A DNA stretch of 64,000 nt from Sphingorhabdus sp. (lineage in GTDB: Bacteria; Pseudomonadota; Alphaproteobacteria; Sphingomonadales; Sphingomonadaceae): assembly GCF_036721295.1 (NCBI RefSeq), contig NZ_DAIMLK010000014.1. One strand, 5' to 3'. Below the pieces are notes generated by a model. That model was given only the letters and a program-made list of their open reading frames with translations, was not told where the DNA came from and searched no databases. The position numbers and the translations under genes were made by a program. Positions 10,059 through 51,159 of the stretch are shown here, piece by piece; within the stretch, counting starts at the first letter, position 1, and every line of letters starts with the position of its first letter.

Positions 10059-10154
10059 TCCCAGAACGCTGAAAAACGACACAAATATTATGATAAATCG
10101 GCGGAAATGGCGACATTTTAGCAACAGTATAGAGACATAGCGGCTTGCATCGAT

Positions 10155-10179
10155 GGAACAGAATTGGTAGACCTGCGTT
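10155..10179 (+). promoter_or_regulatory. EcfG (general stress response sigma)-type promoter candidate
   Basis: GGAAC (10155-10159), a 16-nt spacer, then CGTT (10176-10179). This is an exact match to the GGAAC-N16/17-CGTT consensus and lies about 40 nt upstream of the OmpA-like start. Confidence 0.4.
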
Positions 10180-10218
10180 CTCGAATTTCCGTTCCTAAGA
10201 TAAATAAGGGGAAAGTTG

Positions 10219-11340
10219 ATGCGTAAGTTAGCCATAAGTTTGGCGCTCGCTTCTACTGCTCTGGCGTCACCGGCTTTGGCCCGCGATAACCAGTGGTATG
10301 TCGGAGTTGATGGCGGTGCCATGATAGTAGAAGACCTCGCTTTGGATATTGCTGGCCTGAATGATGCGGCAACAGTAGATCCAGACAAGGGTTATGATTT
10401 CGGCGGCGTAGTGGGCTATGATTTTGGCGGTTTCCGTCTTGAATCAGAAGTCTCGTATCGTAAGGCTGATGTGACTGGCTTCACCAGCCAAGCTCCCCAG
10501 ATCACCAGCGGCGCAGGTACGACCTTGGCCCGTGGCGGCACATATGCCGTAGCTGGTAACGCAAATGCATTGAGCTTCATGGTCAATGGCTTGCTCGATT
10601 TCGGTGACGATGACGGCCTTCAGGGCTTTGTTGGCGGCGGCGTTGGTGTCGCACGCGTAGACATGCAGACCGTTTTGGCTGCCCCTGCATTCCTCGATGA
10701 TTCGGACACGGGTTTTGCATGGCAGGCACTCGCTGGCGTTCGCGCGCCATTGAGCGACAATTGGGATATCGGCCTGAAATATCGTTTCTTTAACGCCAAC
10801 AAGGTCAGCCTGGTCGATCGCCTTGGCCGTGCAGTGGACTCACGCTTCCGTTCGCACAGCGTGATGGGCAGCCTGGTTTACAACTTCGGCGGCGCACCTG
10901 CGCCTGTTGAAGTTGTTGCACCACCGCCACCACCTCCATATGTGGCGCCACCCCCACCACCGCCACCACCGCCGCCACCTGCGCCGGTTTGCAACATGGG
11001 TCCGTATATCGTGTTCTTCGATTGGGATAATTCGAACCTGCGTCCAGACGCGGCTTCGGTTCTCGACAATGCCGTTGCGCAATATGCGAACTGTGGCAGC
11101 GCGAAGGTGATGCTTGCAGGTCACGCCGATAAATCGGGTACTGCAAAGTATAACGTTGGCCTCTCGCAGCGTCGTAACGACACCGTTCGTACGTACCTTG
11201 AGTCCAAGGGCGTAACAGCTGGCGCGATTGCCACTGAAGCGTTCGGTGAAACTGCGCCATTGGTACAAACTGCAGATGGTGAGCGTGAACCACAAAACCG
11301 TCGTGTAGAAGTTACCTACGGTCCAGGTTCGGGAATGTAA
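10219..11340 (+). CDS. OmpA-family outer-membrane protein (beta-barrel, poly-Pro linker, OmpA_C peptidoglycan-binding domain)
   Basis: It has a signal peptide (ALASTALASPALA) and a Gly/aromatic-rich barrel region. The linker reads PPPPPPYVAPPPPPPPPPPPAP. The C-terminal OmpA domain carries GHADKSGTAKYNVGLSQRR...NRRVEV. I preferred the ATG at 10219 over the TTG at 10216. Confidence 0.9.
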   Translation: MRKLAISLALASTALASPALARDNQWYVGVDGGAMIVEDLALDIAGLNDAATVDPDKGYDFGGVVGYDFGGFRLESEVSYRKADVTGFTSQAPQITSGAGTTLARGGTYAVAGNANALSFMVNGLLDFGDDDGLQGFVGGGVGVARVDMQTVLAAPAFLDDSDTGFAWQALAGVRAPLSDNWDIGLKYRFFNANKVSLVDRLGRAVDSRFRSHSVMGSLVYNFGGAPAPVEVVAPPPPPPYVAPPPPPPPPPPPAPVCNMGPYIVFFDWDNSNLRPDAASVLDNAVAQYANCGSAKVMLAGHADKSGTAKYNVGLSQRRNDTVRTYLESKGVTAGAIATEAFGETAPLVQTADGEREPQNRRVEVTYGPGSGM

Positions 11341-11368
11341 TTCCCAATCTGATTTCAGGTTAAAAGAA

Positions 11369-11397
11369 AGGCTGGTCGAAAGACCGGCCTTTTTTTT
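11369..11397. terminator. Rho-independent terminator between convergent ompA-like and glnD genes
   Basis: AGGCTGGTC-GAAA-GACCGGCCT (9 bp, one G-U) is followed by T7, with an A-rich stretch on the left. Confidence 0.7.
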
Positions 11398-11435
11398 GCT
11401 CTACATGCGTGATCCCGCTCATGGCAGTGCCGAAT

Positions 11436-22208: not shown

Positions 22209-23618
22209 TTATAGCACCCGCAGCGCACTAACCAGCCAGACCGCCCCCACAATCAGCGGAATTCCCGCAAGGTCGAGAAAAAATCCGGCCTTCACCATTT
22301 TGGGCACGGCTATATGCCCGCTGGCCCATGCAATGGCATTTGGCCCCGTGCCTGACGGCATCATAAAGCCCCAGCTTGCGGCCATGGATGCCGCCATCGC
22401 CATCAACCAAGGATCAGCGCCCGTTGCGGCCACAAGGCCAGCCACAACAGGCAGCACGCCACTGGCGGTCGCGACATTGCTGGCAAATTCGGTGATCAAA
22501 ATGACCAAAGCGGTTAGCGCAAGTGCGATGATGACGGGATGCACCACCGATAATGGCTCTAATGCCTCTCCAAGCCACGCAGCGAGCCCGGACTGGGTGA
22601 TGCCAGCCGCGAGTGCCAAACCACCCCCGAACATCATGATAACACCCCATGGGGCTCTGTCCGCTTCCTGCCATGTCAGCAAGGGACGACCCGTGCCATC
22701 AGGGATCAGGAACAAAAGCAAAGACCCTGCAATCGCAATGCTGCCGTCGGTAATGCCGCCCTTGGGCAGTAGCGGTTCCAACAAAGGTTGCCCAATCCAT
22801 AGGCCGATGACCAACAGAAATATTGGAATGAGCCGTTTTTCCGCCACGGACATGGGCTGTGCCTTGCCAATCGAGGCGCGCGCAGCATCCACGTCAAAAC
22901 TTCCAGCAGTGACATTCTGCACCCGCATCAGGATGAACGCGCATAAAGGCACGCCGATAATCACGACGGGCAGGCCGTAGAGCATCCATGTCAGAAAGCT
23001 GATTTGGATACCCAATTGCTTTTCCACGAGCGCCGCTGCAATCGCATTGGTTGGCGATCCGACAAGCGTCCCAAGCCCGCCAATCGACGCGGCAAAGGCT
23101 ACGCCCATGATAAGCGCGCCTGCCAGCCCGTCGGTTTCTCCGGGCTTGGTTCCGCCAGCCGCCAGCACCGCAATCGCGATCGGCACCATGATCAGCGCGA
23201 TGGACGTGTTGGACATCACCATGCTGAGCAAGGCGGTTGAACCCATGAACGCAATCATGAGGCCCGTGACGCTATGCCCCGACCGCGCAAGAATCGCGAG
23301 TGCGACGCGGCGGTGCATGCCCGTGCGCTCAATCGTGAGCGCCAAAAACGCGCCGCCCAAAATGAGGAACAGGATCGGCGAGTAATATTCCTTCGCGACA
23401 TCCTGCGCGGTCATAATGTTCATTAAAGGCAGCGCCAGAAACGGCAGCAATGCGGTCACCGTCAACGGCAAGGCTTGCGTCATCCACCACATCGCCATCA
23501 AGATGGTGAGCGCGGCAACATGCCATGCAGTTGGTTCCATACCTGTTGGTGCAGGCAGCGCGAGCATGACGGCAAAGACAACAAGTCCGCCCCAAAAGCC
23601 GATTCTTTCCGCCGTCAT
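22209..23618 (-). CDS. SLC13/DASS-family anion:sodium symporter
   Basis: Polytopic. I chose the internal ATG at 23618 (MTAERIG...) because it forms an ATGA overlap with the pgeF stop; the listed ORF extends to 23675. Confidence 0.85.
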   Translation of the reverse strand: MTAERIGFWGGLVVFAVMLALPAPTGMEPTAWHVAALTILMAMWWMTQALPLTVTALLPFLALPLMNIMTAQDVAKEYYSPILFLILGGAFLALTIERTGMHRRVALAILARSGHSVTGLMIAFMGSTALLSMVMSNTSIALIMVPIAIAVLAAGGTKPGETDGLAGALIMGVAFAASIGGLGTLVGSPTNAIAAALVEKQLGIQISFLTWMLYGLPVVIIGVPLCAFILMRVQNVTAGSFDVDAARASIGKAQPMSVAEKRLIPIFLLVIGLWIGQPLLEPLLPKGGITDGSIAIAGSLLLFLIPDGTGRPLLTWQEADRAPWGVIMMFGGGLALAAGITQSGLAAWLGEALEPLSVVHPVIIALALTALVILITEFASNVATASGVLPVVAGLVAATGADPWLMAMAASMAASWGFMMPSGTGPNAIAWASGHIAVPKMVKAGFFLDLAGIPLIVGAVWLVSALRVL

Positions 23619-24388
23619 GGGCGCAGCCCAACCAGCGAGAGTTGGCGGCCATATCCGGGTTCGCCCATATGGCAACTGCGCCGGTAACTGAAGAAGCGAT
23701 CCGGCTGGCTATAGGTGTCTTCGCCCAGACATGCGACTGTCCGGATACCCGCCGCCGCCAGTCGCGCCACGACATAGCCTTCAATGTCGAATTGATAATG
23801 GCCGACTTTGCCATCGGCGAAGAAGCGTTCGTTTTGCGCGGCGTGTTCGACGAATTTGCGGAAAAAGCCTTCATCCACTTCATAGCTTTTCTGCGCAATA
23901 CAGGGGCCAATGGCGCAGCTTATGCGGCCCGCCTGCGCGCCGAGTTTTTCCATCGCGCTGATGGTGTTTTCCAGCACGCCGCTTATGGCGCCTTTCCAAC
24001 CGGCATGTGCCGCGCCGATGACGCCTGCCTTGGTATCTGCAAACAAAACAGGCACGCAATCGGCGGTCACAATCCCCAAAAGCACATTGGGTTGGTCGGT
24101 CACCATAGCGTCGCCGCGTGGTGGATCATCTTGCGAAATGGTATTGTTGACCTGCACAACATCGGCAGAATGAAACTGATGGACGCGGGCAAGCATTGCG
24201 CCGGGCAGAACCGATTGCACGCCGAGTAGGCGATTTTCAATGACGGATTCCCGGGCATCTTCAGAACCCAACCCGACGTTTAGCCCGGCATAGATTCCCG
24301 TCGATACCCCGCCCTTTCGTCCAAGAAAACCATGCGCGACTTTGTCCAGCACGCCTGATTGGATTACCTCAACTGCCATGCCTTGCAT
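23615..24388 (-). CDS. pgeF: Peptidoglycan editing factor / laccase-domain protein (YfiH family)
   Basis: 257 aa with motifs HSADVV, GDAMVT, TADCVPVLF and HAGWKG. Confidence 0.85.
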   Translation of the reverse strand: MQGMAVEVIQSGVLDKVAHGFLGRKGGVSTGIYAGLNVGLGSEDARESVIENRLLGVQSVLPGAMLARVHQFHSADVVQVNNTISQDDPPRGDAMVTDQPNVLLGIVTADCVPVLFADTKAGVIGAAHAGWKGAISGVLENTISAMEKLGAQAGRISCAIGPCIAQKSYEVDEGFFRKFVEHAAQNERFFADGKVGHYQFDIEGYVVARLAAAGIRTVACLGEDTYSQPDRFFSYRRSCHMGEPGYGRQLSLVGLRP

Positions 24389-24457
24389 GTCCTCCCTTCG
24401 CCTCTATTCGCAACTGCCGCGCTTGACGGCAAGCCATTAGATTGCGAACCAGCCTAT

Positions 24458-25318
24458 ATGCAGAGACATATGCTTATATTTGGAATGGGCTACACCGCCA
24501 CCCGCCTTGCCGACAGTTTGCGCGCCGATGGTTGGTTGGTCACGGGTACAAAGCGGATGAGCGGTGGCGATGCCATTGCCTTTGATGATGAAGTCGCGGT
24601 CCTGACCGCGCTGGAGACCGCGACGCATATATTGTCGAGCGTACCGCCCATGAGCGAGGGCGGCGATCCGGTGCTTTTGAAATATGGTGCGGCGATTGCC
24701 GCGCGCGAGCCTGCATGGATTGGCTATCTGTCCTCCACCGGCGTCTATGGCGATACCGGCGGCGCATGGGTTGATGAAAGTGCGCCAATAGGCAGCGGGC
24801 GGCGCACCGCGCGGGCCGAAGCTGACCTTGCATGGCAGGCATTGCGCGACGATGTCCGTATTTTCCGCCTGCCCGGCATTTACGGCCCGGGCCGATCGGC
24901 GCTGGAGCGGGTGGCAGAAGGCAAGGCGCATCGCATCGACATGCCCGACCAGATTTTCAGCCGCGTCCATGTTGACGACATTGTCGCTGCGGTCATTGCC
25001 GCCTTTGATGGTCCCGCGGGCGTTTATAATATTGCCGATGACATGCCCGCGCCGCAAAATGATGTCATCACTTATGCGTGCGACCTGCTGCGCCGCGATT
25101 GGCCACCCCTGCAGTCCATCGCAGAGGCTGGCCTATCGCCCATGGCGCGTGGATTTTATGCTGAAAACCGCCGCGTCGCGAATATAAAGGCGAAGCGCCT
25201 TTTAAACTGGGCGCCGCAATATCCCAATTACCGGTTGGGCTTAGGCGCCTGCATCGCGACGACCAAACCGAGCATCGCCAACCCGCCACCTGCCAGCGCC
25301 AGCATTGACCAGACATAG
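24458..25318 (+). CDS. SDR-family NAD(P)-dependent oxidoreductase/epimerase
   Basis: It has a Rossmann N-terminus (MLIFGMGYTA). The start could be 24458 or 24470. The 3' tail overlaps the convergent EamA gene by 91 nt. Confidence 0.75.
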   Translation: MQRHMLIFGMGYTATRLADSLRADGWLVTGTKRMSGGDAIAFDDEVAVLTALETATHILSSVPPMSEGGDPVLLKYGAAIAAREPAWIGYLSSTGVYGDTGGAWVDESAPIGSGRRTARAEADLAWQALRDDVRIFRLPGIYGPGRSALERVAEGKAHRIDMPDQIFSRVHVDDIVAAVIAAFDGPAGVYNIADDMPAPQNDVITYACDLLRRDWPPLQSIAEAGLSPMARGFYAENRRVANIKAKRLLNWAPQYPNYRLGLGACIATTKPSIANPPPASASIDQT

Positions 25319-29139: not shown

Positions 29140-29214
29140 TGGTGCTGCTGGGGAGGATTGAACTCCCGACCTCGTCATTACCAATGACGCGCTCTACCAC
29201 TGAGCTACAGCAGC
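29140..29214 (-). tRNA. tRNA-Thr (anticodon GGU)
   Basis: The reverse complement folds as a cloverleaf of 75 nt. Acceptor is GCTGCTG/CAGCAGC and the D arm is GCTC-AGTGGTA-GAGC. The anticodon stem is CGTCA/TGACG with loop TTGGTAA. The T arm is GGGAG-TTCAATC-CTCCC and the CCA end is encoded. Confidence 0.95.
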
Positions 29215-35098: not shown

Positions 35099-35626
35099 AT
35101 GCAAACTCGTTACCTCACCCTCTTCGCCGTTCTCGGCCTCGCCGCATGCGTTGCGCCGCCGCCTTCCCCCGCGCCAAAGATTGTTTCCGCGCCGCCGCCT
35201 GTGGCTGCTGCGCCGCCGCCGCCGCGATTGACGGGGGATTGGAATGACTGGCACTTCACGCCCGGCAATTGGACTTACCGCCGCGATGGCCGCAGTTCGG
35301 TTGCGCAGTTCGGGGCGCCGGGACGCAACGCGGCCATCAACTTTCGCTGCGATGCAGAGAACCGCCGCGTCACATTATCGCGTGAAGCATCGGCACTGAG
35401 TGCGCGCATGGTTATCCGAACCTCCTCTATGACAAAAACAGTGGCGGCGACGGCAAGCGACGCAAAACCGGGCTATCTGGCGGCCGACATCGCAGCCACC
35501 GATCCCATTTTGGATGCCATGGCCTTTAGCCGTGGCCGCGTGTTGGTTGAAATGGAAGGGCAGCAACCCGTCATCCTGCCGTCATGGGCCGAAATCACGC
35601 GTATAGTTGAAGATTGTAGAGGGTAA
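35099..35626 (+). CDS. Hypothetical lipoprotein
   Basis: 175 aa with the lipobox LGLAAC followed by a Pro/Ala-rich linker. No family recognised. Confidence 0.6.
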   Translation: MQTRYLTLFAVLGLAACVAPPPSPAPKIVSAPPPVAAAPPPPRLTGDWNDWHFTPGNWTYRRDGRSSVAQFGAPGRNAAINFRCDAENRRVTLSREASALSARMVIRTSSMTKTVAATASDAKPGYLAADIAATDPILDAMAFSRGRVLVEMEGQQPVILPSWAEITRIVEDCRG

Positions 35627-37950: not shown

Positions 37951-38262
37951 CTAAGCCTTCACCGCGCAGATTAGTCCCGAGGACGTTGTAACACCCAATA
38001 TTTCTGGGTCCTGCAACGCACGTGTACGCGTTAGAAATTCCTCGACGGTCACGTTGCGTATATCCTGCCCGCGCAGTTTCTTCAGACCGCTCAACTTATT
38101 CAGTTGAATCAGCGAAAGGCGGTCGACCATGCGATCGGCCATACACGCGGCAACCGGTTGCGAAAGCCCCGCATCCATCAATGCCGTGCGGACGCGGGTT
38201 TCGGGGGTGGCGCAAGCCGAAAGCGCCAGTGATGTTATACCAACCAGCGCAATACGCTTCAT
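37951..38262 (-). CDS. Hypothetical small lipoprotein
   Basis: 103 aa with the lipobox LALSAC. It has a 4-nt overlap with the ppa stop, which suggests co-transcription. Confidence 0.55.
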   Translation of the reverse strand: MKRIALVGITSLALSACATPETRVRTALMDAGLSQPVAACMADRMVDRLSLIQLNKLSGLKKLRGQDIRNVTVEEFLTRTRALQDPEILGVTTSSGLICAVKA

Positions 38263-38795
38263 ACACCTTTTTCCTTTGCACGTTCAACGCATTCAATAAT
38301 AATGCGTTTTGCATCCGTTTCATCACCCCAGCCATTCAGCTTGGCCCATTTTCCGGGCTCCAAATCTTTATAGTGGGTGAAAAAATGCTCGATCTGTTGC
38401 AGGACGATAGGTGGCATGTCCTTATAGGTCACGACGTCGGAATAATAAGGGAAGGTTGCGTTCACTGGCACGCAGAGCAATTTTTCGTCGCCGCCCTTGT
38501 CGTCTTCCATCATCAACACGCCAATCGGACGGCATTTGACAACCGCGCCGGCGATAATGGGGGAGCGGGCTACGACCAAAGCGTCCAAGGGATCACCATC
38601 TTCACCCAAGGTGTGCGGCACAAAGCCATAATTGGCTGGATAGCGCATTGGCGTGTGTAAGAAACGGTCTACGAATAAAGCGCCAGATGCCTTGTCGAAT
38701 TCATATTTCACAGGCTCGCCGCCAATGGGGACTTCGATCAGGACGTTGAGGTTTTCGGGTACATTGTCGCCCGCAGGGATGAGGTCAATACGCAT
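38259..38795 (-). CDS. ppa: Inorganic pyrophosphatase (family I)
   Basis: 178 aa with motifs EIPIGGEPVKYEFDK and DGDPLDALV. Confidence 0.95.
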   Translation of the reverse strand: MRIDLIPAGDNVPENLNVLIEVPIGGEPVKYEFDKASGALFVDRFLHTPMRYPANYGFVPHTLGEDGDPLDALVVARSPIIAGAVVKCRPIGVLMMEDDKGGDEKLLCVPVNATFPYYSDVVTYKDMPPIVLQQIEHFFTHYKDLEPGKWAKLNGWGDETDAKRIIIECVERAKEKGV

Positions 38796-40331: not shown

Positions 40332-41404
40332 AAATCTCTCCGCACCGCATTGCGCAGATTGAGTCGCGCTTTTCCGAGCTTGAGGCACGCATGGCTTCGG
40401 GGCAGTTGGAGGGCGACGCTTTTGTGGCCGCCTCGCGCGAATATTCCGAACTGGAGCCTGTGGCCAAGGCCGCAGCTGAAGTCCGGCGCTTGCGCACGGA
40501 AATCGAAACGCTTGGGGCTATGGCGCAGGATAACTCCGACCCTGATTTGCATGCGATGGCGGTCGAGGAACTGGATGTTGTCACGCATCAGTTGTCGGAC
40601 GCGGAAACCTCGCTCGCCATTTCCTTGCTACCCCGCGACTCTGCGGATGACCGGCCAGCCATGCTCGAAATTCGTGCGGGTACGGGCGGTGACGAAGCGG
40701 CTTTGTTCGCTGGCGACCTCTATCGCATGTATGAACGCTATGCCGCCGGGCAGGGATGGAAGATTGAACCGATTTCGGTTAGCGCCTCCGACGTGGGCGG
40801 CTATAAAGAAGTGGTCGTCGCGATCAAAGGCACGGGCGTGTTTGCCAAGCTGAAATATGAAAGCGGCGTCCACCGTGTGCAGCGTGTGCCCGTAACGGAA
40901 AGCGGCGGGCGGATCCACACCAGCGCGGCAACGGTGGCGGTCCTGCCGGAGCCGACGGAAGTGGATATCCAGATCGAGGCGCGCGACCTGAAAATCGATG
41001 TGTATCGTGCGTCGGGTGCAGGCGGGCAGCACGTCAACACCACGGACTCAGCCGTGCGCATTACGCACTTGCCCACGGGTATTGTAGTGACATGTCAGGA
41101 CGGACGCAGCCAACACAAGAACAAGGAACAGGCCATGCAGGTCTTGCGTGCCCGCATGTATGAAAAAGAGCGTGAGGAGGCCCAAGGCGCCGAGGCCGAA
41201 GCCCGCAAGGCGATGGTTGGCTCCGGCGACCGTTCCGAACGCATCCGCACCTATAACTTTCCCCAAGGCCGCGTGACCGACCACCGGATCAACCTGACGC
41301 TGCATAAGCTGCCCGAGATTTTGGAAGGCGGCGGCTTGGGCGAACTGGTTGACGCGTTGATTGCCGAGGATCAGGCCGAGCGTATGGCCGGGTTGGGGGA
41401 GTGA
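40328..41404 (+). CDS. prfA: Peptide chain release factor 1
   Basis: 358 aa with a TTG start that overlaps the hisS stop. It has the PVT tripeptide context (RVPVTES) and the GGQ motif ([15 protein letters not shown]). Confidence 0.96.
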
Positions 41405-41416
41405 CCACCCAACTGC

Positions 41417-41566
41417 CGTCGCCCCAGCGCAGGATGGAGCAACGGTGGGTTGGGGAGTGGGTTTTACCTCCCTATCGTCACCCTGAACTTGTTTCAGGGT
41501 CCATTTCGCCTCTGCACCCTTCGGTTGATGTGGCACGATGGATGCTGAAACAAGTTCAGCATGACG
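41417..41566. repeat. Cluster of REP-like hairpin repeats between convergent prfA and the monooxygenase gene
   Basis: 41417-41433 (CGTCGCCCCAGCGCAGG) is a third copy of the 27.25-kb repeat. 41476-41504 (CGTCACCCTGAACTTGTTTCAGGGTCCAT) matches the reverse complement of 41538-41566 at 25/29 positions. Each copy is an 8-bp hairpin. Confidence 0.65.
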
Positions 41567-41583
41567 TAGAGAAATAAAGCCGA

Positions 41584-42651
41584 CTAAACCGCCAACCGTC
41601 CATGTTCCAGTTTCGGCAGAACATAGCGTGCGAACATGTCGCATTCATTGATGTGCGGATAGCCCGATAGAATGAAAGCCTCGATACCCACGTCGCGATA
41701 GGCGTTGATTTTGGCGAGCACTTGGTCGGGGTCGCCAACGATGGCAGCGCCGCAGCCGGAGCGGGCGCGGCCAATGCCGGTCCACAGATTATCTTCTAAA
41801 TAGCCATCATTTGCTTCGGCTTGCGCGCGCAATTCGGCCTGATGCGCAACGCCGAAGGTTTGGGTGTCGAGCGATTTGTTGCGGATTGCCTCACCCTGAT
41901 CGGCATCAAGCTTGGACAGCAAACGGTTGGCATAAGCGCGGGCCTCTGCCTCGCTGTCGCGGACGATGACATGCGCGCGGAAACCATATTTCAGTGTGCG
42001 ACCGAACTTGGCTGCGCGGGCGGTCATGTCTTCGACCAGGTCCTTGGCACCCTGCACCGTTTCGGGCCACATGAGATAGACGTCACAACCTTCGGCAGCG
42101 GCGTTCTTTGCGGCTGGCGACAGGCCACCAAAATAAAGCGGCGGGCATTTGCCGCTGACCGTTTTCATGCGCGGCGGGTCGATGTCGATCTTGTAATGCT
42201 CGCCATCGATCGACAGATGTTCGCCGTTCAGCAAAGTCTTCAATATGTGCATCGCCTCAACGGTGCGGCGGTAGCGGGGGTCGGAATCCATCTTGTGGCC
42301 GGGCAAATCCGACGAGATGATGTTGACGTTCAGCCGTCCACCCGAAATCTGGTCCAGCGTCGCGATCTGCCGTGCCAGTTGGGGAGGCCAGCTTTCGCCG
42401 ATACGCACAGCCATGAGCAATTTTATCCGCGTGGTTAGCACCGCAATCGCACTGGCAAAGGCGGTGGTATCAAGACCAAGGGTATAGCCCGATGGCAGCA
42501 AGATATTGTCAAACCCGCCTTTTTCAGCGGCCAAAACGATATTGCGGCAATGTTCCCAGCTGGAGGCCAAATTGGCGTCAGGCACGCCCAGAAATTCATA
42601 GTCGTCATCGCACAACGCGGAGAACCAGCTGACTTCAACAGGTTTGCTCAT
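41584..42651 (-). CDS. SsuD-like LLM-class flavin-dependent monooxygenase (candidate sulfoquinovose monooxygenase, SmoC-like)
   Basis: 355 aa from the ATG at 42651, which forms an ATGA overlap with the AKR stop. It is collinear with E. coli SsuD as I recall it: VSWFSAL...YEFLG, PPLYFGGLS, HVIVRDSEAEA, NLWTGIGRARSGCGAAIVGDPDQV and ILSGYPH. Confidence 0.8.
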   Translation of the reverse strand: MSKPVEVSWFSALCDDDYEFLGVPDANLASSWEHCRNIVLAAEKGGFDNILLPSGYTLGLDTTAFASAIAVLTTRIKLLMAVRIGESWPPQLARQIATLDQISGGRLNVNIISSDLPGHKMDSDPRYRRTVEAMHILKTLLNGEHLSIDGEHYKIDIDPPRMKTVSGKCPPLYFGGLSPAAKNAAAEGCDVYLMWPETVQGAKDLVEDMTARAAKFGRTLKYGFRAHVIVRDSEAEARAYANRLLSKLDADQGEAIRNKSLDTQTFGVAHQAELRAQAEANDGYLEDNLWTGIGRARSGCGAAIVGDPDQVLAKINAYRDVGIEAFILSGYPHINECDMFARYVLPKLEHGRLAV

Positions 42652-43550
42652 GGCAGTGGCACTCCTCTTGCCGCGACCAATACGCTGTAATAATCCGCGC
42701 GGGTCCATTGAATTTTGAAGGCATCGGCGGCTTCGGCAATCCGCGCTGGGTTTTGCGAGCCCACAATCGGGATCGGTCGGGCGGGGTGCGCCATGATCCA
42801 GCTATAGGCCGCCGCCGTGCGCGAAACGCCATGCGCCGATGCAACTGCCGAAAGGGCCGCCGCGACATTTTCTTCGCGCGTATTACTTGGTTCACCAATG
42901 CGTCCGCCGCCCAATGGCGACCATGCCATCACGGCCAAGTCCATCGCCATCGCTTGATCCAGTTCGCCATTTTCGACGGTGTCGATCCGCAAGGGCGACA
43001 GTTCGGGTTGTGTCGAGACGATGGGAACCGGGCTAAATTGCGCCAGCGTTGCAATCTGCGCTTGCGTAAAGTTGGACACGCCGAATGCGCGAATTTTGCC
43101 AGCTTTATGTGCGTTTTCGATAGTGCGGGCGATTTCCTGCGGGTGCGTCAACACGTCTGGCCGGTGAATTTGCCATAGGTCGATGCGGTCGGTGCGCAAA
43201 CGGGTCAGGCTGTCATCAATGGCTTTGGTCAGATATTCTGCGCTGCTGTCATAAGGGGTTGGCGGGGTGATGCCGCCCTTTGTCGCCAGCACCATGCGGT
43301 CGCGATACTCAGGGGCTTGCGCAAATATTTGGCCAAGCAGTTCTTCTGCCTTGCCAAAACCTTGCTCACCAAAACCGTAAATATCGGCGGTGTCAAACAG
43401 GGTGATGCCAGCATCAAACGCGGCATCAATGGCGGCGCGCGCTGCAGACAATTCAAGACCAGCAAAGCGCCACATGCCCCATGCGAGCGACGAGATTTCT
43501 ATGCCACTTTTGCCCAATGGACGGGTGCGTGATGGGGAAGAAAGGGTCAT
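42648..43550 (-). CDS. Aldo/keto reductase (candidate 6-oxo-glucose reductase, SmoB-like)
   Basis: 300 aa with AKR motifs LAWGMWRF, FDTADIYG and GVSNF. It has ATGA overlaps on both sides. Confidence 0.8.
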   Translation of the reverse strand: MTLSSPSRTRPLGKSGIEISSLAWGMWRFAGLELSAARAAIDAAFDAGITLFDTADIYGFGEQGFGKAEELLGQIFAQAPEYRDRMVLATKGGITPPTPYDSSAEYLTKAIDDSLTRLRTDRIDLWQIHRPDVLTHPQEIARTIENAHKAGKIRAFGVSNFTQAQIATLAQFSPVPIVSTQPELSPLRIDTVENGELDQAMAMDLAVMAWSPLGGGRIGEPSNTREENVAAALSAVASAHGVSRTAAAYSWIMAHPARPIPIVGSQNPARIAEAADAFKIQWTRADYYSVLVAARGVPLP

Positions 43551-44578
43551 GATTTTTTGCTCTTTTTTGCAGAAGGGAAATAAGGTGGGGCGACGGATTC
43601 GCGGCTGATAAGTTCGTGGGGCAGGCGGCGATGTTCAATCCCGCCTTCGCCAAACAAAAGGTCGGCGGCGGTCGAGGCAAGGTCGCGAACCGGCTGACGC
43701 ACGGTGGTCAAGGGCGGCCAAACAACGCGGGCCAGCGTGGTATCGTCAAAGCCGGCAACCGAAAGCTGCTCGGGGATTTGAATACCGCGCCGATGTGCGA
43801 CCGCAAGCACGCCCGATGCCATGTCGTCGTTTGATGCGAAAATCGCGGTGGGAGGATGCTTCAGCGACAGGAATTGTTCCGTTGCCGCTACGCCGCTTTC
43901 GAAATCAAACCGTCCCTCGGTAATCAGGTCAGAATCAACCGATATGCCGACGCGTCCTAAGGCGCGTTCGTAACCCGCTTGTCGTTCGGTACTCGCCTTA
44001 TGATTTGGGTGGCCCTTGATAAAGCCGATCCGCCGATGGCCGATGTTGATCAGCTTCGTCGTCATGTCGTCGGCAGCCTGCATGTCATCCATGAAGACGG
44101 AGCTGGTCAGTGCATGGTTGGTGCCAGGCGAGATGCGCACAAAGGGAATGTTGAGTGCCTCAAGTGCGTTGAGCACAGGCACGCAATCGGTGACGGGGGA
44201 GGAGAGTATCGCCCCATCGACATGCGTTTGCCGGACCATGCCGCGCACCTGTTCACCTACGTCTGGGTCGGCAACATCCACCGGCTGCGCGATTAAGCGC
44301 ATGCCTTCTTGATGGCAACGGTCCCAGCATCCTTGCATGATTTGGTGCATATAATAAGGGCTGTGATTGTCGTAGATGAGGGCAATCTGTCCTGACTTGT
44401 TGCCCGCAAGAATGCGCGCGGCAATACTTGGGCTAAAGCCAAGTTCCGACATGGCGGCGTCCACCTTGGCCTTAGTCGCCGCGCTCACATAAGGATGGTC
44501 GTTGAGCACGCGGCTAACGGTTTTAACCGCCACACCAGCCAGCTTTGCGACATCGCGTATGTTGGCGCGTGGGTTCAT
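43547..44578 (-). CDS. LacI-family transcriptional regulator
   Basis: 343 aa with an HTH N-terminus (IRDVAKLAGVAVKTVSRVLN) and a periplasmic-binding-protein-like sugar-binding core. Confidence 0.9.
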   Translation of the reverse strand: MNPRANIRDVAKLAGVAVKTVSRVLNDHPYVSAATKAKVDAAMSELGFSPSIAARILAGNKSGQIALIYDNHSPYYMHQIMQGCWDRCHQEGMRLIAQPVDVADPDVGEQVRGMVRQTHVDGAILSSPVTDCVPVLNALEALNIPFVRISPGTNHALTSSVFMDDMQAADDMTTKLINIGHRRIGFIKGHPNHKASTERQAGYERALGRVGISVDSDLITEGRFDFESGVAATEQFLSLKHPPTAIFASNDDMASGVLAVAHRRGIQIPEQLSVAGFDDTTLARVVWPPLTTVRQPVRDLASTAADLLFGEGGIEHRRLPHELISRESVAPPYFPSAKKSKKS

Positions 44579-46587
44579 GCAGAAAAAGCCGCGCGGATGG
44601 CCGCGAATAGGTCCGCATATGCGCTGTCGGCGCGGGTAAAGACAGGTGGCTGACCGTTCGGCGCAGCGATGTCATGCGTGCCTTTGCCATAGGCCTTGCC
44701 CGACCAGAGATGGACCCAGTCGCCATCGGGTATCACTACAGGGCGGCTCTCTTGGCCTTGCTCAACCACCGGTGCGACGATCATGTCAGCACCATAAAGA
44801 TATTGGTCCTGAATGTCGAAATATGCGGGGTCATCATAATGCAGGAATAAGGGCCGTTGCAGCGGCAGGCCAGTTGCCAATGCTTCGTCGCACAATGCGC
44901 GGACATAAGGCGCAAGCTGCGCATGGACTTGGCTCATCCGCGCAAAATGGCTCAGGATTTCGGGGCTGCTGTCGAGTTGCAAATTGTCCGCGGGGCGGTT
45001 GCCCTCATGGCTGCGCATCACGGGCGCAAAGGCAGCAAGGTCGATCCAGCGGTGCATAAGCTCCGCCGTCCGCACGACGCCGTGCAGGCTGGTATAGCCG
45101 CCCAAGTCGCTATGATGATAGGCGTTGCCCAACAGGCCCGATGACAAAGCGGCCGTTATCACCGTGTTGATGCCATCATGGCGCGTGAAATCCACACTTT
45201 GGTCGCCCGCCCATAATAAGGGGCAATGCGCCTGAACGCCCGAAAAACCTGCGCGCATGAAGAAGGTGGCGTCATGGGTCTTGCCGCGTGACGCGATCGC
45301 ATCTGCGTTTACCTTCGCCCATAAAACGGGCCAGCGATTATGCGCCTCCATCGGGTCAGAGCCGTCGAACAAGCGCACATCGGTTGGCAGATACTCGCCA
45401 AAATCGGCCATCCATCCTGACAGCCCGAAATCGAGCATTTCTTGGCCGATGATACGGTCGGCAAACCAATTGGCGGCGTCAGGATTGGTGAAATCCACGA
45501 CGCCAGCGTCAAATTCGCCGAAGTCGACGGCATAGACGTCGTCGCTGTCTTGCCGCAGCGCCAGATAATTATTGGCCAGCGCCTCTTGATAGAGTGCGCC
45601 ATCCACCGCCAGATAGGGGTTCACATAGCCCAAAAAGCGGATGCCCCGTTTGGCGAGCGAAGCTATCTGTGCAGGAAGATCAGGATAGCGCGCCGCGTTC
45701 CATTTCCAGTCCCAGAACAAGCGTTTGCCAAAACTGGTTTGGCGGATGCCTACCCAATCTTCGCACCACAGCCCCGAAAGGGCCGCGCCAGAGGCGGCAA
45801 TGGTCTCGAAGCGATCAAATGTATCCACGCCATCTTTCAGGCCGACAATCGCACCGGAAATGGCCCAGTCGGGCAAAGGCGGCTGGCGGCCGAAACGGTC
45901 GGATAATCTGGTCATCAGATCGGGTAGCGATGGCGCTTCAAACAATTCTAAATCGACATTGGCCGACCAGCATTCGATGCCCACCCGGCCCGCTTCAGAC
46001 AGGTCGAGTACCGAATAAGTCGTTGTTTCGAGGTGTACTGCATAACGCGCACTGCTTACCCATGTTGGCTGCGGATAATTGGTGGTCCAATAATCACCGC
46101 CCGCCATGCCATCTGCATCCATGGTCTGGGTAAGCGCGGTCGATTTATCGCGGCCAACCCCAGGCTCCGACGTCCAGAATGGAAAGCGTCGTCCGTTCAG
46201 CCGCAAATAGGACATTTGCTCCCCGCCGCCCCAAAAGGCTTCGGGCGTTGCGCACTGCATATCTACCCAAAGCCGGTTGACGGCTGGATCGCTGCAGCGA
46301 AATGTGAGGATGGTTTGCTGCGCCTTTTCCTCAAGCACCAGCGTTGCGACAATGTCGGGTCGCTTTGCGTTCCAAAGGCGGATACAACCGTCAACTTGGG
46401 CGGCGCAGTCCAGCTTCAATCGTGTTTCAACGATGTCGTCGATGCGAAAATTGCCACGAACCATTTCCAAATCAGGCGAGCCAACGCCAATGCTGATAGC
46501 AGGCGCACCCGCGCGATGTGACAGCATGCAGTTGTTATCGCGCAGTAGGTCAAAGCCGTCTGTTTGCATGATGACTTTAAATGGCAA
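44575..46587 (-). CDS. yihQ: GH31 sulfoquinovosidase (YihQ/SmoI family)
   Basis: 670 aa with a TTG start preceded by GAGAGGGA (alternative ATG at 46569). It is block-by-block collinear with my recollection of E. coli YihQ. Matching blocks are GNFRIDD, GGGEQMSYLRLNGRRFPFWTSEPGVGRDK, AGGDYWTTNYPQPTW, GRQPPLPDW and WCEDWVGIRQTSFGKRLFWDWKWN (the R-x-x-W sulfonate pocket). Further blocks are GWMADFGEYLPTD (nucleophile Asp), LWAGDQSVDF (acid/base), HHSDLGGYT and MRSHEGNRP. Confidence 0.85.
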   Translation of the reverse strand: MPFKVIMQTDGFDLLRDNNCMLSHRAGAPAISIGVGSPDLEMVRGNFRIDDIVETRLKLDCAAQVDGCIRLWNAKRPDIVATLVLEEKAQQTILTFRCSDPAVNRLWVDMQCATPEAFWGGGEQMSYLRLNGRRFPFWTSEPGVGRDKSTALTQTMDADGMAGGDYWTTNYPQPTWVSSARYAVHLETTTYSVLDLSEAGRVGIECWSANVDLELFEAPSLPDLMTRLSDRFGRQPPLPDWAISGAIVGLKDGVDTFDRFETIAASGAALSGLWCEDWVGIRQTSFGKRLFWDWKWNAARYPDLPAQIASLAKRGIRFLGYVNPYLAVDGALYQEALANNYLALRQDSDDVYAVDFGEFDAGVVDFTNPDAANWFADRIIGQEMLDFGLSGWMADFGEYLPTDVRLFDGSDPMEAHNRWPVLWAKVNADAIASRGKTHDATFFMRAGFSGVQAHCPLLWAGDQSVDFTRHDGINTVITAALSSGLLGNAYHHSDLGGYTSLHGVVRTAELMHRWIDLAAFAPVMRSHEGNRPADNLQLDSSPEILSHFARMSQVHAQLAPYVRALCDEALATGLPLQRPLFLHYDDPAYFDIQDQYLYGADMIVAPVVEQGQESRPVVIPDGDWVHLWSGKAYGKGTHDIAAPNGQPPVFTRADSAYADLFAAIRAAFSA

Positions 46588-46801
46588 CTTTCATCCCTCT
46601 CGCCGTTTCGAACCGGTTACTATGACAACATTGCAACAGTCCCGACTTAAAAATCGTCGTCATATGACACCGCTAGACATATTGAGTCAATCTGGTAACA
46701 ACCCCGCCATTGCTAAGGTATGTCCCCACATAGCTTTTATTGCTTGAGTAAACTCAAGTGATTTGGTTGAGAAGCGGACGGCCATTTTTAGGGAGGTACA
46801 T

Positions 46802-49195
46802 ATGATGTTCAGTTCTGAATTTAAGAAATCGTCTTTCGTCCGCGCTTCATTGTTCGCAAGCGCCGCAATCATGGCAGGTGTCAGCCTGCCTGCGGTGGCG
46901 CAGACCGCTCCTGCAGAAGATGATTCTGCCAATGCAGAAATCATCGTAACCGCGCAGAAGCGTGAAGAGCGTTTGCAGGATATTCCGCTCGCCGTATCCG
47001 TTGTTGGCGGAGAGGCTGTGGCCAATAATGGCGGCATCACGCTTGAAAATGCCCAGTATCTTGTTCCAAGCTTAAACTTCCGCAAGGCGGGTACGTCACT
47101 GAACCAGGCATTGTTCCTGCGCGGCGTTGGCACCATCAACTTCTCGATTGCTGCTGAACCATCGGTCGCTGCTGTTCTCGACGGTGTCGTCTTGAGCCGC
47201 GCTGGTGAAGGCTTCACGGATTTGTTCGACGTTGAGCGTATCGAAGTTTTGCGCGGACCGCAGGGCACATTGTTCGGAAAGAACGCGTCCGCTGGTGTCG
47301 TAAGCATCGTGACGAAGCGTCCGACGGCTGAATATGGCGCGACGGTTGAAGGTTCATTTTTCACGAAATCCGAATATCGCGGTCGTGCGACGGTTAACTT
47401 GCCGCTTGGCGCCCATGTGCGTTCGCGCTTCACCGGATTTTACGGAAGCTATGACGGCAACGTTAACAATCTGACCACTGGCAAAAAGGTCAATGGCTAT
47501 GAACATTATAGTGTTCGTGGAGCTATTGAAGCCGACGTTAGCGAAAAAGTAATGCTGACGCTGCGCGCCGATTACCGCAAAGCCGATGATGATTGCTGTG
47601 CCGAAATTATTGGCAACACGCCAACCAATGCTGCCGCTCTCGCGCTGGTTGGAACTGGCTTCGATCGTTCGGATTCACGCAACATTCGGCAAAACCTCGT
47701 CACCGCGACGAAGGAAGAAAGCTGGGGCATCGCGCTGCAAGCAGACGTTGAATTGGGCGATCATAGTCTGACTTCGATCACCAGCTATCGTGGTTGGGAC
47801 AATACTGAAATCCGCGATGGTGACTGGCTCGACCGGCCCTATGTTGGTTTGAACCAATTGCACGATAATGGCCCGCAAACATCGAACACCTTTAGCCAAG
47901 AAGTTCGGATTGCTTCGCCGACCGGCGAATTCCTCGAATATGTTGTTGGGGCATATTATTCGAAGGCGGAGTCGGACCGTACATTTACGCGCAATGTGAT
48001 TACATGTTCAGCATCAACGCTTGCTGCGGTTGTGCCGGGCCTCACACCTTGTTCAACGGCTGCAGGGGCGTCGACGATCACAACCCCTGCCGGAACGGCT
48101 GACTTTGGTTCGACATTCAAAAACATGTCGGTATTTGGTCAGGCGACGTTCAACCTATCGGACAGCCTGCGTTTGATTGGTGGCTTGCGCTACACAGATG
48201 ACGAATTGGATGTAAACCATGTCCGCCGGACCTCGCTCGCAGGTCCAGGTGTGCAACCAAATTTTGACGCGGGCGTTTACAATAATGGTCTTGTGGCAAC
48301 AGCCCCGGCAACAGGCTTTGTCGCAGGCGCGTCGAACGGTGTTCCTTTCACCACAAGCACGAGCAACACTAACGTTTCGGGTAAGGCAGCCGTTCAGGCG
48401 GACCTCACGGAAAACAATATGGCTTATGCAAGCTATACCCGTGGTTATAAAGGCCCAGCCTACAATATATTCTACAACCTAACGACGCCGGGCGCTGGTG
48501 TTATCGCACCAGAAACGGTCAACGCGTATGAAGTGGGTTTGAAAAATACGTTCCTTGACGGCGACCTGATTGTTAACCTCGCGGCATATTATGCCAAGTA
48601 TAACAATTATCAGGCAAACAGCCCCGATTTCGTGGCCGGTGTGCGTACCACACGCCTGACAAATGCTGGTTCGGTCTCCACCAAGGGTTTCGAACTGGAC
48701 TTTGTCGCCACCCCTTTGCGTAACTTTACCCTTTCGGGCGGCGTTGCTTACAACAAGGCGCAGGTTGAGAATTTCCGTTTGCCACCGGGTGCCGATGCAT
48801 CACAATTGGTTGCCAAGGGCACGCCGCTCGCGAATGCTCCAAAATGGAAAATGGCGTTTGGTGCGCAATATGATATCGAAACGTCGGGTTTTGCGAATAT
48901 CGAATTGGGAAGCCAGATCGCAATGCAGTCAGACCAGATTTACGAAGCAAGTGCGAACCCGGCCGTTCGCCTTGGTTCGACGGTAGATGGCTACGCGATT
49001 GTCGACTTGTCGGCAGCTCTGGTTGATCCCAATGATGGCTGGCGTCTGGCGTTTCAGGTTAAGAATCTGTTCGATAAAAGCTTTGCATCCTCGATTGTAT
49101 CGGGTGGCCCTGGCGGTGCATATCGCTACATCATCCCCCGCGAGGCGGACCGTTATTTTGGCGTAACAGCGAAGATCAATTTCGGCGCGAAATAA
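46802..49195 (+). CDS. TonB-dependent receptor
   Basis: 797 aa from the ATG at 46802, with RBS GGGAGG at 46791-46796. It has a signal peptide (AGVSLPAVAQ), the plug motif IIVTAQKREERLQDIPLAVSVV, and a long beta-barrel ending in an aromatic-rich C-terminus. Confidence 0.9.
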   Translation: MMFSSEFKKSSFVRASLFASAAIMAGVSLPAVAQTAPAEDDSANAEIIVTAQKREERLQDIPLAVSVVGGEAVANNGGITLENAQYLVPSLNFRKAGTSLNQALFLRGVGTINFSIAAEPSVAAVLDGVVLSRAGEGFTDLFDVERIEVLRGPQGTLFGKNASAGVVSIVTKRPTAEYGATVEGSFFTKSEYRGRATVNLPLGAHVRSRFTGFYGSYDGNVNNLTTGKKVNGYEHYSVRGAIEADVSEKVMLTLRADYRKADDDCCAEIIGNTPTNAAALALVGTGFDRSDSRNIRQNLVTATKEESWGIALQADVELGDHSLTSITSYRGWDNTEIRDGDWLDRPYVGLNQLHDNGPQTSNTFSQEVRIASPTGEFLEYVVGAYYSKAESDRTFTRNVITCSASTLAAVVPGLTPCSTAAGASTITTPAGTADFGSTFKNMSVFGQATFNLSDSLRLIGGLRYTDDELDVNHVRRTSLAGPGVQPNFDAGVYNNGLVATAPATGFVAGASNGVPFTTSTSNTNVSGKAAVQADLTENNMAYASYTRGYKGPAYNIFYNLTTPGAGVIAPETVNAYEVGLKNTFLDGDLIVNLAAYYAKYNNYQANSPDFVAGVRTTRLTNAGSVSTKGFELDFVATPLRNFTLSGGVAYNKAQVENFRLPPGADASQLVAKGTPLANAPKWKMAFGAQYDIETSGFANIELGSQIAMQSDQIYEASANPAVRLGSTVDGYAIVDLSAALVDPNDGWRLAFQVKNLFDKSFASSIVSGGPGGAYRYIIPREADRYFGVTAKINFGAK

Positions 49196-50394: not shown

Positions 50395-51159
50395 ATGGCT
50401 ACTTTGGGTGGGGCACAATCGCGCGCAAGTGACGCCGATAATTTTTTCCGCATACTTGCGATAATCATGGCCTTCACGGTCGTTGCGGGTTTTTCAGTTC
50501 AGTATCTCGCCGGACGATCCAGCTTTGGTGCGCGAACGCTTGTGCATGTGCATGGGCTTGCCTTCATGGCCTGGGTCGGCCTGTTTGTCGCGCAGGCGTG
50601 GCTGGCAACGCATGGGCCGATTTCGCTGCACCGGCGCTTGGGCTGGATATTGGTCCTTGTGCTGCTGGGCAGCGTCATCACCATTGACGTTATTCAGCGT
50701 GGGACGACGCCATTTTTCTTTCAACCGCAGAATTTCCTGATTGCCAACCCGTTCTCCGCGATCATGTTTGCGGCGCTTGCATGGACCGCTATCCGCCTTC
50801 GTCGGCACACTGACTGGCATATGCGCCTGCACATTTGTGCGATGACGACCATCATTGGGCCTGCATTTGGCCGGTTGTTGCCGATGCCCTTGCTCATACC
50901 CTACGCATTTGAGATGGCCGGGATTGTTAGCCTTGTTTTTCCGGTTGCCGGAATTGTCCATGATCTGCGCAAGTATGGCCACGTGCATCCTGCATGGTAT
51001 TGGGGCATCGCGGCGGTTCTGTCGGTAATTCCGGTGTCGCACATTGTTGCGAATTCGGCGTTGGGTGACGCGATCTATGCTGCGGTCACGGCGGGACATC
51101 CCGGTGCAGACGTTCCCGGCATGGAATTTGCCCCGCCACTGACAATCCCTTCAAGCTAG
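50395..51159 (+). CDS. Hypothetical integral membrane protein (about 6 TM)
   Basis: 254 aa with alternating hydrophobic segments. No family recognised. Confidence 0.55.
   Translation: MATLGGAQSRASDADNFFRILAIIMAFTVVAGFSVQYLAGRSSFGARTLVHVHGLAFMAWVGLFVAQAWLATHGPISLHRRLGWILVLVLLGSVITIDVIQRGTTPFFFQPQNFLIANPFSAIMFAALAWTAIRLRRHTDWHMRLHICAMTTIIGPAFGRLLPMPLLIPYAFEMAGIVSLVFPVAGIVHDLRKYGHVHPAWYWGIAAVLSVIPVSHIVANSALGDAIYAAVTAGHPGADVPGMEFAPPLTIPSS

Follow-up and report, generated by a model that had tools for sequence, protein, structure and literature searches.

A compact four-gene operon on the minus strand of a 64,000-nucleotide stretch of Sphingorhabdus sp. DNA (contig NZ_DAIMLK010000014.1; the whole stretch is hereafter the window) raises the question of whether this lineage carries its own form of a pathway for the degradation of sulfoquinovose (SQ), a plant and algal sulfosugar. 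Two oxygenolytic routes are known that mineralize SQ fully in one organism, the SQ monooxygenase (sulfo-SMO, or sulfo-ASMO) and the SQ dioxygenase (sulfo-SDO) pathways. The operon encodes, in order of transcription, a glycoside hydrolase of family GH31, a LacI-family regulator, an aldo-keto reductase (AKR) and a luciferase-like monooxygenase (LLM). Since characterized sulfo-SMO proteins are the best solved-structure matches for all three enzymes, the operon very probably represents the sulfo-SMO/ASMO pathway in its Sphingomonadales form, here in freshwater Sphingorhabdus.

The four genes and their products

Direct reading of the sequence showed that each of the three junctions of the operon is an ATGA start/stop overlap (44578-44575, 43550-43547 and 42651-42648), and Pfam assigned the four products to GH31, to LacI with a periplasmic-binding fold, to Aldo_ket_red and to Bac_luciferase, respectively. 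The longest open reading frame (ORF) of the LLM gene starts at 42708 and spans 374 aa. The ATG at 42651 was chosen as its start instead, because the resulting 355 aa is the length of nearly all close homologs and because the end of the AKR gene and the start of the LLM gene coincide there in more than 20 related loci. An earlier note, made from the sequence alone, had described four co-directional minus-strand genes joined by ATGA overlaps. The ORF coordinates and the sequence reading bear this out, and the peptides that it listed are present in the translations of the GH31 enzyme (SFGKRLFWDWKWN, SGWMADFGEYLP, LLWAGDQ, YHHSDLGGYT) and of the LLM (CPPLYFGG, AHVIVRDSE, NLWTGIG, VGDPDQV, SGYPH).

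A search of the Protein Data Bank (PDB) with the GH31 product returned the Agrobacterium tumefaciens sulfoquinovosidase (SQase) SmoI as top match (5OHY/5OHS/7OFX, E 2.8e-251), with Escherichia coli YihQ (5AED) at E 8e-182 and ordinary alpha-xylosidases and alpha-glucosidases at E 1e-40 or worse. The protein also scores above the cut-off of the NCBI equivalog model for YihQ (NCBIfam NF007746, 862.5 bits versus 553), and its collinearity with YihQ and its SQase features, which the earlier note had put forward, are upheld by this score and by the SmoI match. The Arg/Trp/Tyr sulfonate triad, whose loss had been named beforehand as evidence against an SQase, is intact in the alignment, where R289/W292/Y498 correspond to A. 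tumefaciens R283/W286/Y491. Likewise, the acid/base D462 aligns with D455, and the contacts to the aglycone of sulfoquinovosyl glycerol (SQ-glycerol), E141 and R445, align with E135 and R438. On the basis of the alignment and of what is generally known of family GH31, D395 (A. tumefaciens D388) is presumably the nucleophile. Residue numbers were fixed by reference to chain 5OHS/7OFX, a D455N mutant, and to the triad, acid/base and aglycone residues of the A. tumefaciens enzyme named in PMC8795539, the nucleophile not being among them. The GH31 protein lacks a signal peptide, which places the predicted hydrolysis in the cytoplasm.

The best PDB matches of the LLM are SmoC enzymes (7OLF RoSmoC, 367.8 bits; 7OH2 AtSmoC, 361.5 bits), to both of which it is 52% identical. 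They score about 150 bits above MsuD (214.8) and SsuD (191.9), with E values of 7e-109 for SmoC versus 2e-55 for SsuD. Although its top NCBIfam model is SsuD, the LLM reaches only about half of the SsuD equivalog cut-off (TIGR03565, 258.5 versus 518.2 bits). The residues binding the phosphate of flavin mononucleotide (FMN), Y127 and S178, align with RoSmoC Y136 and S189, and the sulfonate constellation W195, R225, H227, Y331 and H333 aligns with W206, R236, H238, Y341 and H343, the recognition residues of RoSmoC being those of PMC8795539. The LLM is thus most likely a reduced-FMN (FMNH2)-dependent SQ monooxygenase of the SmoC/SquD clade; the SmoC role that the earlier note had proposed for an SsuD-type homolog agrees with this placement.

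Occurrence and variants of the cluster

Comparative counts refer to the 80 best loci related to the window operon, with genera given by record title. A TonB-dependent receptor (TBDR) gene diverging from a GH31-LacI-AKR-LLM series was found in 39 of the 80 loci, in about ten Sphingomonadales genera (Sphingorhabdus, Sphingopyxis, Sphingosinicella, Sphingobium, Sphingomonas, Novosphingobium, Porphyrobacter, Tsuneonella and an Erythrobacteraceae metagenome-assembled genome, MAG, are among the titles), and this recurrence shows that the gene arrangement is no chance product. AKR and LLM genes are neighbors in 59 loci, the divergent TBDR gene occupies its place in 53, and 45 keep the LacI gene between those of the SQase and the AKR. 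When one genome per species was scanned, at least 590 genomes encoded a relative of the LLM, the nearest of which (94-96% identity) belong to freshwater Sphingorhabdus MAGs, with several from lake time series. Close homologs are also numerous in public metagenomes, under the labels 'alkanesulfonate monooxygenase', 'alpha-glucosidase' and 'aldo/keto reductase'. The chromosomal position next to prfA and hisS is the same in 21 Sphingorhabdus-type loci with the whole arrangement, and the four operon proteins are 83-98% identical in the closest fifteen of these loci; the conservation of both position and protein sequence points to vertical inheritance under purifying selection. Sphingorhabdus profundilacus IMCC26285 and S. 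contaminans KCTC 32445 are named strains that have this operon (L019, L025).

The GH31 gene is replaced in 12 loci (L023, L028, L033, L039, L043, L045, L048, L053, L061, L065, L067, L077), at the same position but on the opposite strand, by a Gfo/Idh/MocA gene whose product has the NAD-dependent (SqgA-like) SQases of family GH188 as best PDB matches (8QC2/8QC3, E 6e-119). GH188-containing sulfo-SMO clusters have been published, one of them in a Sphingomonas (PMC10755693). Because two unrelated SQases alternate ahead of the same LacI-AKR-LLM module, the exchange argues strongly that this module would process SQ. Other genes are optional in the relatives: a major facilitator superfamily (MFS) transporter in 21 loci, a member of the PF03601 'putative sulfate exporter' family in 8, GlpD in 6, and an SsuE-like FMN reductase together with 3,4-dihydroxy-2-butanone 4-phosphate (DHBP) synthase in 4 (L041, 4267-5432; L060; L062; L066). 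These accessory genes agree with a catabolism of SQ-glycerol and with a step that requires FMN. The genes for the FMN reductase, which is NADPH-dependent, and for DHBP synthase, an enzyme of riboflavin biosynthesis, follow the LLM gene in some Novosphingobium and Porphyrobacter clusters, which suggests that such clusters may supply reduced flavin and a flavin precursor locally. As none of the optional modules lies in the 64-kb window, the Sphingorhabdus operon is the minimal form of the cluster.

Plasmids carry the genes as well. The same TBDR and GH31-LacI-AKR-LLM arrangement is found on plasmid pLA3 of Novosphingobium pentaromativorans US6-1 (L081), with glpD and glpK after the LLM gene and, upstream, genes for a sulfotransferase and for another TonB receptor (437-2155 and 10099-13139 of that locus for the two flanks). 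Several Novosphingobium, Sphingomonas and Sphingobium strains have the LLM gene on large, mostly non-mobilizable plasmids or chromids. Plasmid pWSM4643_1 of Rhizobium sp. WSM4643 (L082; NZ_CP104041.1, 69457-88512) encodes an LLM 68% identical to that of the window together with a LacI gene, next to an ABC (ATP-binding cassette) sugar transporter and a lactonase, IlvD-type dehydratase and aldolase set resembling the sulfo-Entner-Doudoroff pathway; no AKR or GH31 gene lies within 9 kb of this LLM gene, and the locus may represent a hybrid or a different sulfosugar route.

The earlier note had mentioned a monooxygenase route for SQ in a Novosphingobium, and the literature confirms it (PMC9594981, PMC12890257). 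The cluster of Novosphingobium aromaticivorans (Liu et al. 2021, ACS Catal.) is described as comprising SquD, SquF and an SQase of family GH31, with SsuE absent (PMC9594981; PMC12890257; bioRxiv 10.1101/2023.03.31.535182); SquD and SquF have been characterized biochemically, SquF being reported to reduce 6-dehydroglucose (PMC9594981). N. aromaticivorans DSM 12444 belongs to the same bacterial order as the window organism, and the two share the combination of a GH31 SQase, an SsuD-like monooxygenase and an AKR with the lack of SsuE in the cluster. The strain is absent among the 80 loci, and its cluster was not found on its plasmids. Six other Novosphingobium loci have an order identical to that of the window. 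The Sphingorhabdus operon differs from Novosphingobium in protein sequence, with about 58-74% identity between counterparts, and in its chromosomal location between prfA-hisS and TBDR/nadA, and it has neither the downstream glpD/glpK of N. pentaromativorans nor the FMN reductase and DHBP synthase of some Novosphingobium MAGs. The compact architecture, which the earlier note had singled out as worth a look, is the standard layout in Sphingomonadales, with the same gene complement, according to reviews, in N. aromaticivorans.

The chemistry and the enzyme set were established in A. tumefaciens by Sharma et al. 2022, for whom an SQase gene in the cluster is a mark of sulfo-SMO (PMC8795539). The smoABCDEFGHI cluster of A. 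tumefaciens C58, with its SQase SmoI, SQ monooxygenase SmoC and 6-oxo-glucose reductase SmoB, has the chemistry that is proposed for the window operon. However, it has nine genes rather than four overlapping ones, and the window has a TonB receptor in place of the SmoEFGH ABC importer with its binding protein SmoF, lacks the flavin reductase SmoA, and encodes an AKR of another lineage. Roseobacter-clade clusters (for example, that of the Ruegeria sp. TM1040 megaplasmid) share the LLM-AKR core, with 52% identity for the LLM, and an adjoining SQase gene, but there the SQase is of family GH188, the regulator is of the GntR type, and a flavin reductase, a transporter of the TRAP (tripartite ATP-independent periplasmic) type and a SmoB-type AKR are present. 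The SsuDE and MsuDE systems have the fold, the FMNH2/O2 mechanism and the sulfonate-binding residues in common with the window LLM, which has no partner reductase or ssuABC and stands under a sugar-type regulator in a context of carbon catabolism. Finally, the sulfo-SDO cluster of Alteromonas macleodii ATCC 27126 also ties a TonB receptor to SQ desulfonation (PMC12780224), although its C-S bond is cleaved by an Fe/alpha-ketoglutarate dioxygenase and not by a flavin monooxygenase. Both the pathway and its compact sphingomonad layout are already published, and the operon adds little new biochemistry; what is added here is a separate AKR lineage, a candidate operator motif and a second unit marked by a variant of that motif in related contigs.

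The regulator, its candidate operator and the surrounding genes

The LacI-family product matches the Pfam LacI helix-turn-helix and Peripla_BP_3/1 models and scores under the cut-off of every named NCBIfam equivalog. As an operon-internal LacI regulator, it is presumed to be an autoregulated repressor. No inverted repeats were found in the divergent intergenic region, and a conserved motif, block A, emerged only from the alignment of orthologous regions. Block A (TGTCTAGCGGTGTCATA) is invariant across 12 Sphingorhabdus-type divergent intergenic regions and occurs a single time in the window. Its general form, TGTC(A/T)AGCGGTGTCATA, recurs ahead of the SQase gene in numerous further genera (loci named Novosphingobium, Sphingobium, Sphingopyxis, Sphingomonas, Porphyrobacter, Tsuneonella and an Erythrobacteraceae MAG), and a second copy differing at the sixth base precedes the MFS gene in 5 loci. 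This pattern of conservation makes block A a candidate operator of the LacI regulator of the operon, written for genome searches as the core string TGTCNNGCGGTGTCATA.

A variant of block A was also scanned against metagenomes, and 80 loci were listed from at least 120 matching stretches. In 13 of the listed loci (L102, 254-4169; L099, L105, L108, L115, L121, L123, L125, L131, L144, L148, L154, L162) the variant separates a divergent MFS gene from a pair of PF03601 and GlpD genes; the remaining 67 were discarded as chance matches with no related gene there. The operator-like motif of the 13 loci reads TGTC(T/C)(T/G)GCGGTGTCATA; it is part of the promoter region of the MFS gene, of the PF03601 exporter-family gene, or of both, and in most cases the two genes diverge from it with GlpD following PF03601. 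The G+C content is 0.55-0.57, similar to that of the window, in 6 of 8 checked contigs with this motif-marked unit, which in L102 adjoins a suf operon. The unit, known from related metagenome contigs and not from the genome of the window itself, could by analogy form a putative second regulon unit elsewhere in the genome, providing inner-membrane import, sulfite/sulfate export and glycerol-3-phosphate oxidation. We regard it as possible, if somewhat doubtful, that sulfo-SMO in Sphingomonadales is a dispersed LacI regulon, in which the TBDR and SQase-LacI-AKR-LLM operon and the MFS and PF03601-exporter-GlpD unit would share a barely palindromic TGTCnnGCGGTGTCATA operator, the AKR would have been recruited independently with contacts other than those of SmoB, and sulfoquinovosides would be taken up in a TonB-dependent manner.

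A second conserved element, block B (ACTGTTGCAATGTTGTCATAGT), has the invariant columns ACTGT.GCA....TG..ATAG in the same 12 intergenic regions. It keeps this position in Sphingorhabdus-type loci and is found once ahead of the GH31 gene in a Sphingobium (L034), other matches lying elsewhere; it may be a second operator or a 5'-UTR (untranslated region) element. Read from the sequence, TTGACT-N17-TCATAT overlapping block A is a possible promoter.

Table 1. Features of the operon and its intergenic regions (window coordinates).
Feature	Position	Strand	Remarks
GH31	44575-46587	minus	670 aa; begins with a TTG that follows GAGAGGGA
LacI-family regulator gene	43547-44578	minus	343 aa
AKR gene	42648-43550	minus	300 aa
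LLM gene	41584-42651	minus	355 aa
TonB-dependent outer-membrane receptor	46763-49195	plus	divergent; Pfam Plug and TonB_dep_Rec_b-barrel
Block A, TGTCTAGCGGTGTCATA	46679-46663	minus	divergent promoter region; candidate LacI operator
Block B, ACTGTTGCAATGTTGTCATAGT	46619-46640	minus	imperfect palindrome, 32-53 nt upstream of GH31 start
Hairpin	41465-41576	minus	long, near-perfect; right after LLM stop, between convergent LLM and prfA

The divergent TonB receptor is proposed, by analogy, to import SQ or SQ-glycerol; in A. macleodii a TonB receptor is upregulated 107-fold on SQ (PMC12780224). Its true start is probably the ATG near 46802, ahead of the signal peptide MMFSSEFKK...AVAQ. Two TonB receptor families interchange beside the conserved operon: in loci whose operon proteins are 83-96% identical to those of the window (L005, L007, L008, L011, L014, L018, L025), the receptor is 39-43% identical in some and 89-96% in others. 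Beyond the receptor, this flank continues with a metallo-beta-lactamase (MBL)-fold protein, an ORF without assignment and nadA, and on the other side hisS and prfA are convergent with the operon. The hairpin following the LLM gene has its arms around the inverted 15-mer CTGAACTTGTTTCAG (41483-41497 and 41545-41559), for which 0.03 matches are expected by chance, and its RNA fold has an energy of -61.2 kcal/mol (z-score -8.2). The LLM-prfA spacer measures about 180 bp here versus 3 bp in L003, a close relative, and close relatives differ in whether they have the hairpin; it is probably a bidirectional terminator of the convergent transcripts or an insertion resembling a miniature inverted-repeat transposable element.

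Elsewhere in the window, ORFs of 175-254 aa without a Pfam match but with a coding-like G+C content at third codon positions (GC3) lie at 50395-51159, 38022-38660 and 35099-35626 on the plus strand and at 24437-25057 on the minus strand, and a tRNA-Thr (29140-29214) was the sole find of Rfam and tRNA scans. A transporter of the DASS/SLC13 type (Na_sulph_symp/CitMHS; 22209-23675, minus strand) is encoded 18 kb off the operon; it was rejected as the importer of the operon, as nothing ties it to sulfosugar or sulfate traffic.

The proposed pathway and its alternatives

According to the proposed scheme, SQ-glycerol or free SQ would enter through the divergent TonB receptor and would cross the inner membrane via a transporter encoded elsewhere. 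The cytoplasmic GH31 SQase would release SQ from the glycoside, the LLM would use FMNH2 and O2 to cleave its C-S bond, yielding sulfite and 6-oxo-glucose, and the AKR would reduce 6-oxo-glucose to glucose with NAD(P)H. A flavin reductase not encoded in the operon would supply the FMNH2, a source that has also been proposed for N. aromaticivorans. The LacI protein would repress both divergent promoters, probably at TGTCTAGCGGTGTCATA, until a sulfosugar ligand arrives.

Several observations weigh against parts of this scheme. The top PDB matches of the AKR are SmoB structures (7BBZ/7BBY, E 1e-44), with YdhF nearly equal at 4e-43, and the window AKR shares 36% identity with SmoB and 35% with E. 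coli YdhF, whereas the identity of SmoB with YdhF, 46%, exceeds that with the window AKR. A 9-residue loop bearing Lys120, which contacts glucose in SmoB, is deleted in all sphingomonad AKRs examined. That the window AKR and LLM are orthologs of the characterized SquF and SquD is deduced from the shared gene order in the six other Novosphingobium loci. For the LLM, the residues shared with SmoC would support the mechanism and not SQ specificity, because SsuD and MsuD share the same sulfonate-binding residues. Searches of the 64-kb window for the missing functions were also negative: tblastn with MFS, GH188, PF03601, FMN reductase and GlpD relatives found none, and Pfam recovered neither a flavin reductase nor a plausible sulfosugar importer among its other large ORFs, leaving the window without a flavin reductase, an inner-membrane sugar or sulfonate importer and a sulfite exporter. 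As for regulation, block A has no more than a weak palindromic symmetry (TATGnC-N7-GnCATA), an uncommon trait in a LacI operator, and scans of 41300-46900 for consensus promoters and terminators gave counts at the level of shuffled sequence.

The AKR is the weakest of the three enzymes, and its substrate is the main remaining uncertainty in the pathway assignment. The catalytic Asp/Tyr/Lys/His tetrad is kept in the sphingomonad AKRs, and SmoB Tyr76, His151, Arg152 and Trp232 are matched. Taken as pairwise identities rather than as a rooted tree, the sphingomonad AKRs form a lineage separate from SmoB, since they are 58-65% identical among themselves, the window AKR included, versus 36% to SmoB, itself 46% identical to YdhF; SmoB and the AKR of the Ruegeria sulfo-SMO cluster are 65% identical, and the window AKR is 35% identical to the latter. 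The earlier note was thus right to place an AKR between the GH31 and LLM genes, and its SmoI, SmoC and SmoB set stands for SmoI and SmoC, but the AKR is not a close ortholog of SmoB, given the low identity, the equal proximity of YdhF and the missing Lys120 loop. The proposed role of the AKR as a 6-oxo-glucose reductase, the function of SquF and SmoB, rests mainly on its tight and conserved coupling to the LLM.

The alternative that best survives these observations, although an unlikely one, is that the operon acts on a different substrate, such as another 6-sulfo-hexoside, or that the AKR has another job, such as a YdhF-like function or the detoxification of the aldehyde to another product. 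Such a reading would account for an AKR that is equidistant from SmoB and the uncharacterized YdhF and lacks the Lys120 loop, and it is aided by the fact that the structural basis for the SQ specificity of SmoC is unknown (PMC8795539), but it sits poorly with a GH31 enzyme that has the complete SQ triad and the SQ-glycerol aglycone contacts, with the exchange of this enzyme for a GH188 SQase, with the GlpD and GlpK neighbors in relatives, and with the reported reduction of 6-dehydroglucose by SquF of N. aromaticivorans, which has the same gene complement (PMC9594981). A non-functional or incomplete operon, left as a remnant in this streamlined genome, is very improbable: its four ORFs are intact with their catalytic residues kept, the protein identity and the prfA-hisS position in Sphingorhabdus-type loci speak for purifying selection, and even the absence of importer, exporter and flavin reductase from the window, the one point in favor of a remnant, is offset by contigs of like G+C content that carry the motif-marked MFS and PF03601-GlpD unit elsewhere and by the N. 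aromaticivorans cluster, which likewise has no dedicated NAD(P)H:FMN reductase, an enzyme that the literature treats as optional (PMC9594981). Least credible of all is a generic sulfur-scavenging SsuD standing by chance beside an ordinary alpha-glucosidase, a regulator and a reductase with no SQ pathway, for although the public labels of the homologs and the top NCBIfam model of the LLM would suggest it, the LLM scores far higher on SmoC, no ssuABC or ssuE lies nearby, the regulator is a sugar-type LacI and not one of sulfur starvation, the GH31 enzyme is a YihQ equivalog with its sulfonate triad, and the translationally coupled arrangement is kept across genera.

The value of the sulfo-SMO assignment is mainly ecological and practical, in that the pathway is thereby located on the conserved chromosome of freshwater Sphingorhabdus lineages that recur in lake metagenomes. 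Novosphingobium took up 13C-SQ in field stable-isotope probing (PMC13372026), while a 2026 review described the guild of freshwater SQ degraders as poorly defined and its lake-adapted complete mineralizers as not yet identified (PMC13436972). The points that merit follow-up are the divergent AKR, the conserved operator with its possible dispersed regulon, TonB-dependent uptake and the occurrence of the pathway in freshwater Sphingorhabdus. SmoB-like sequences used as survey seeds at about 50% identity would not recover the sphingomonad reductase, and the conserved operator motif offers a handle for locating the genes for import, export and glycerol use. If the dispersed-regulon reading is true, freshwater Sphingorhabdus, which are abundant, would be true lake-adapted organisms that mineralize SQ completely.

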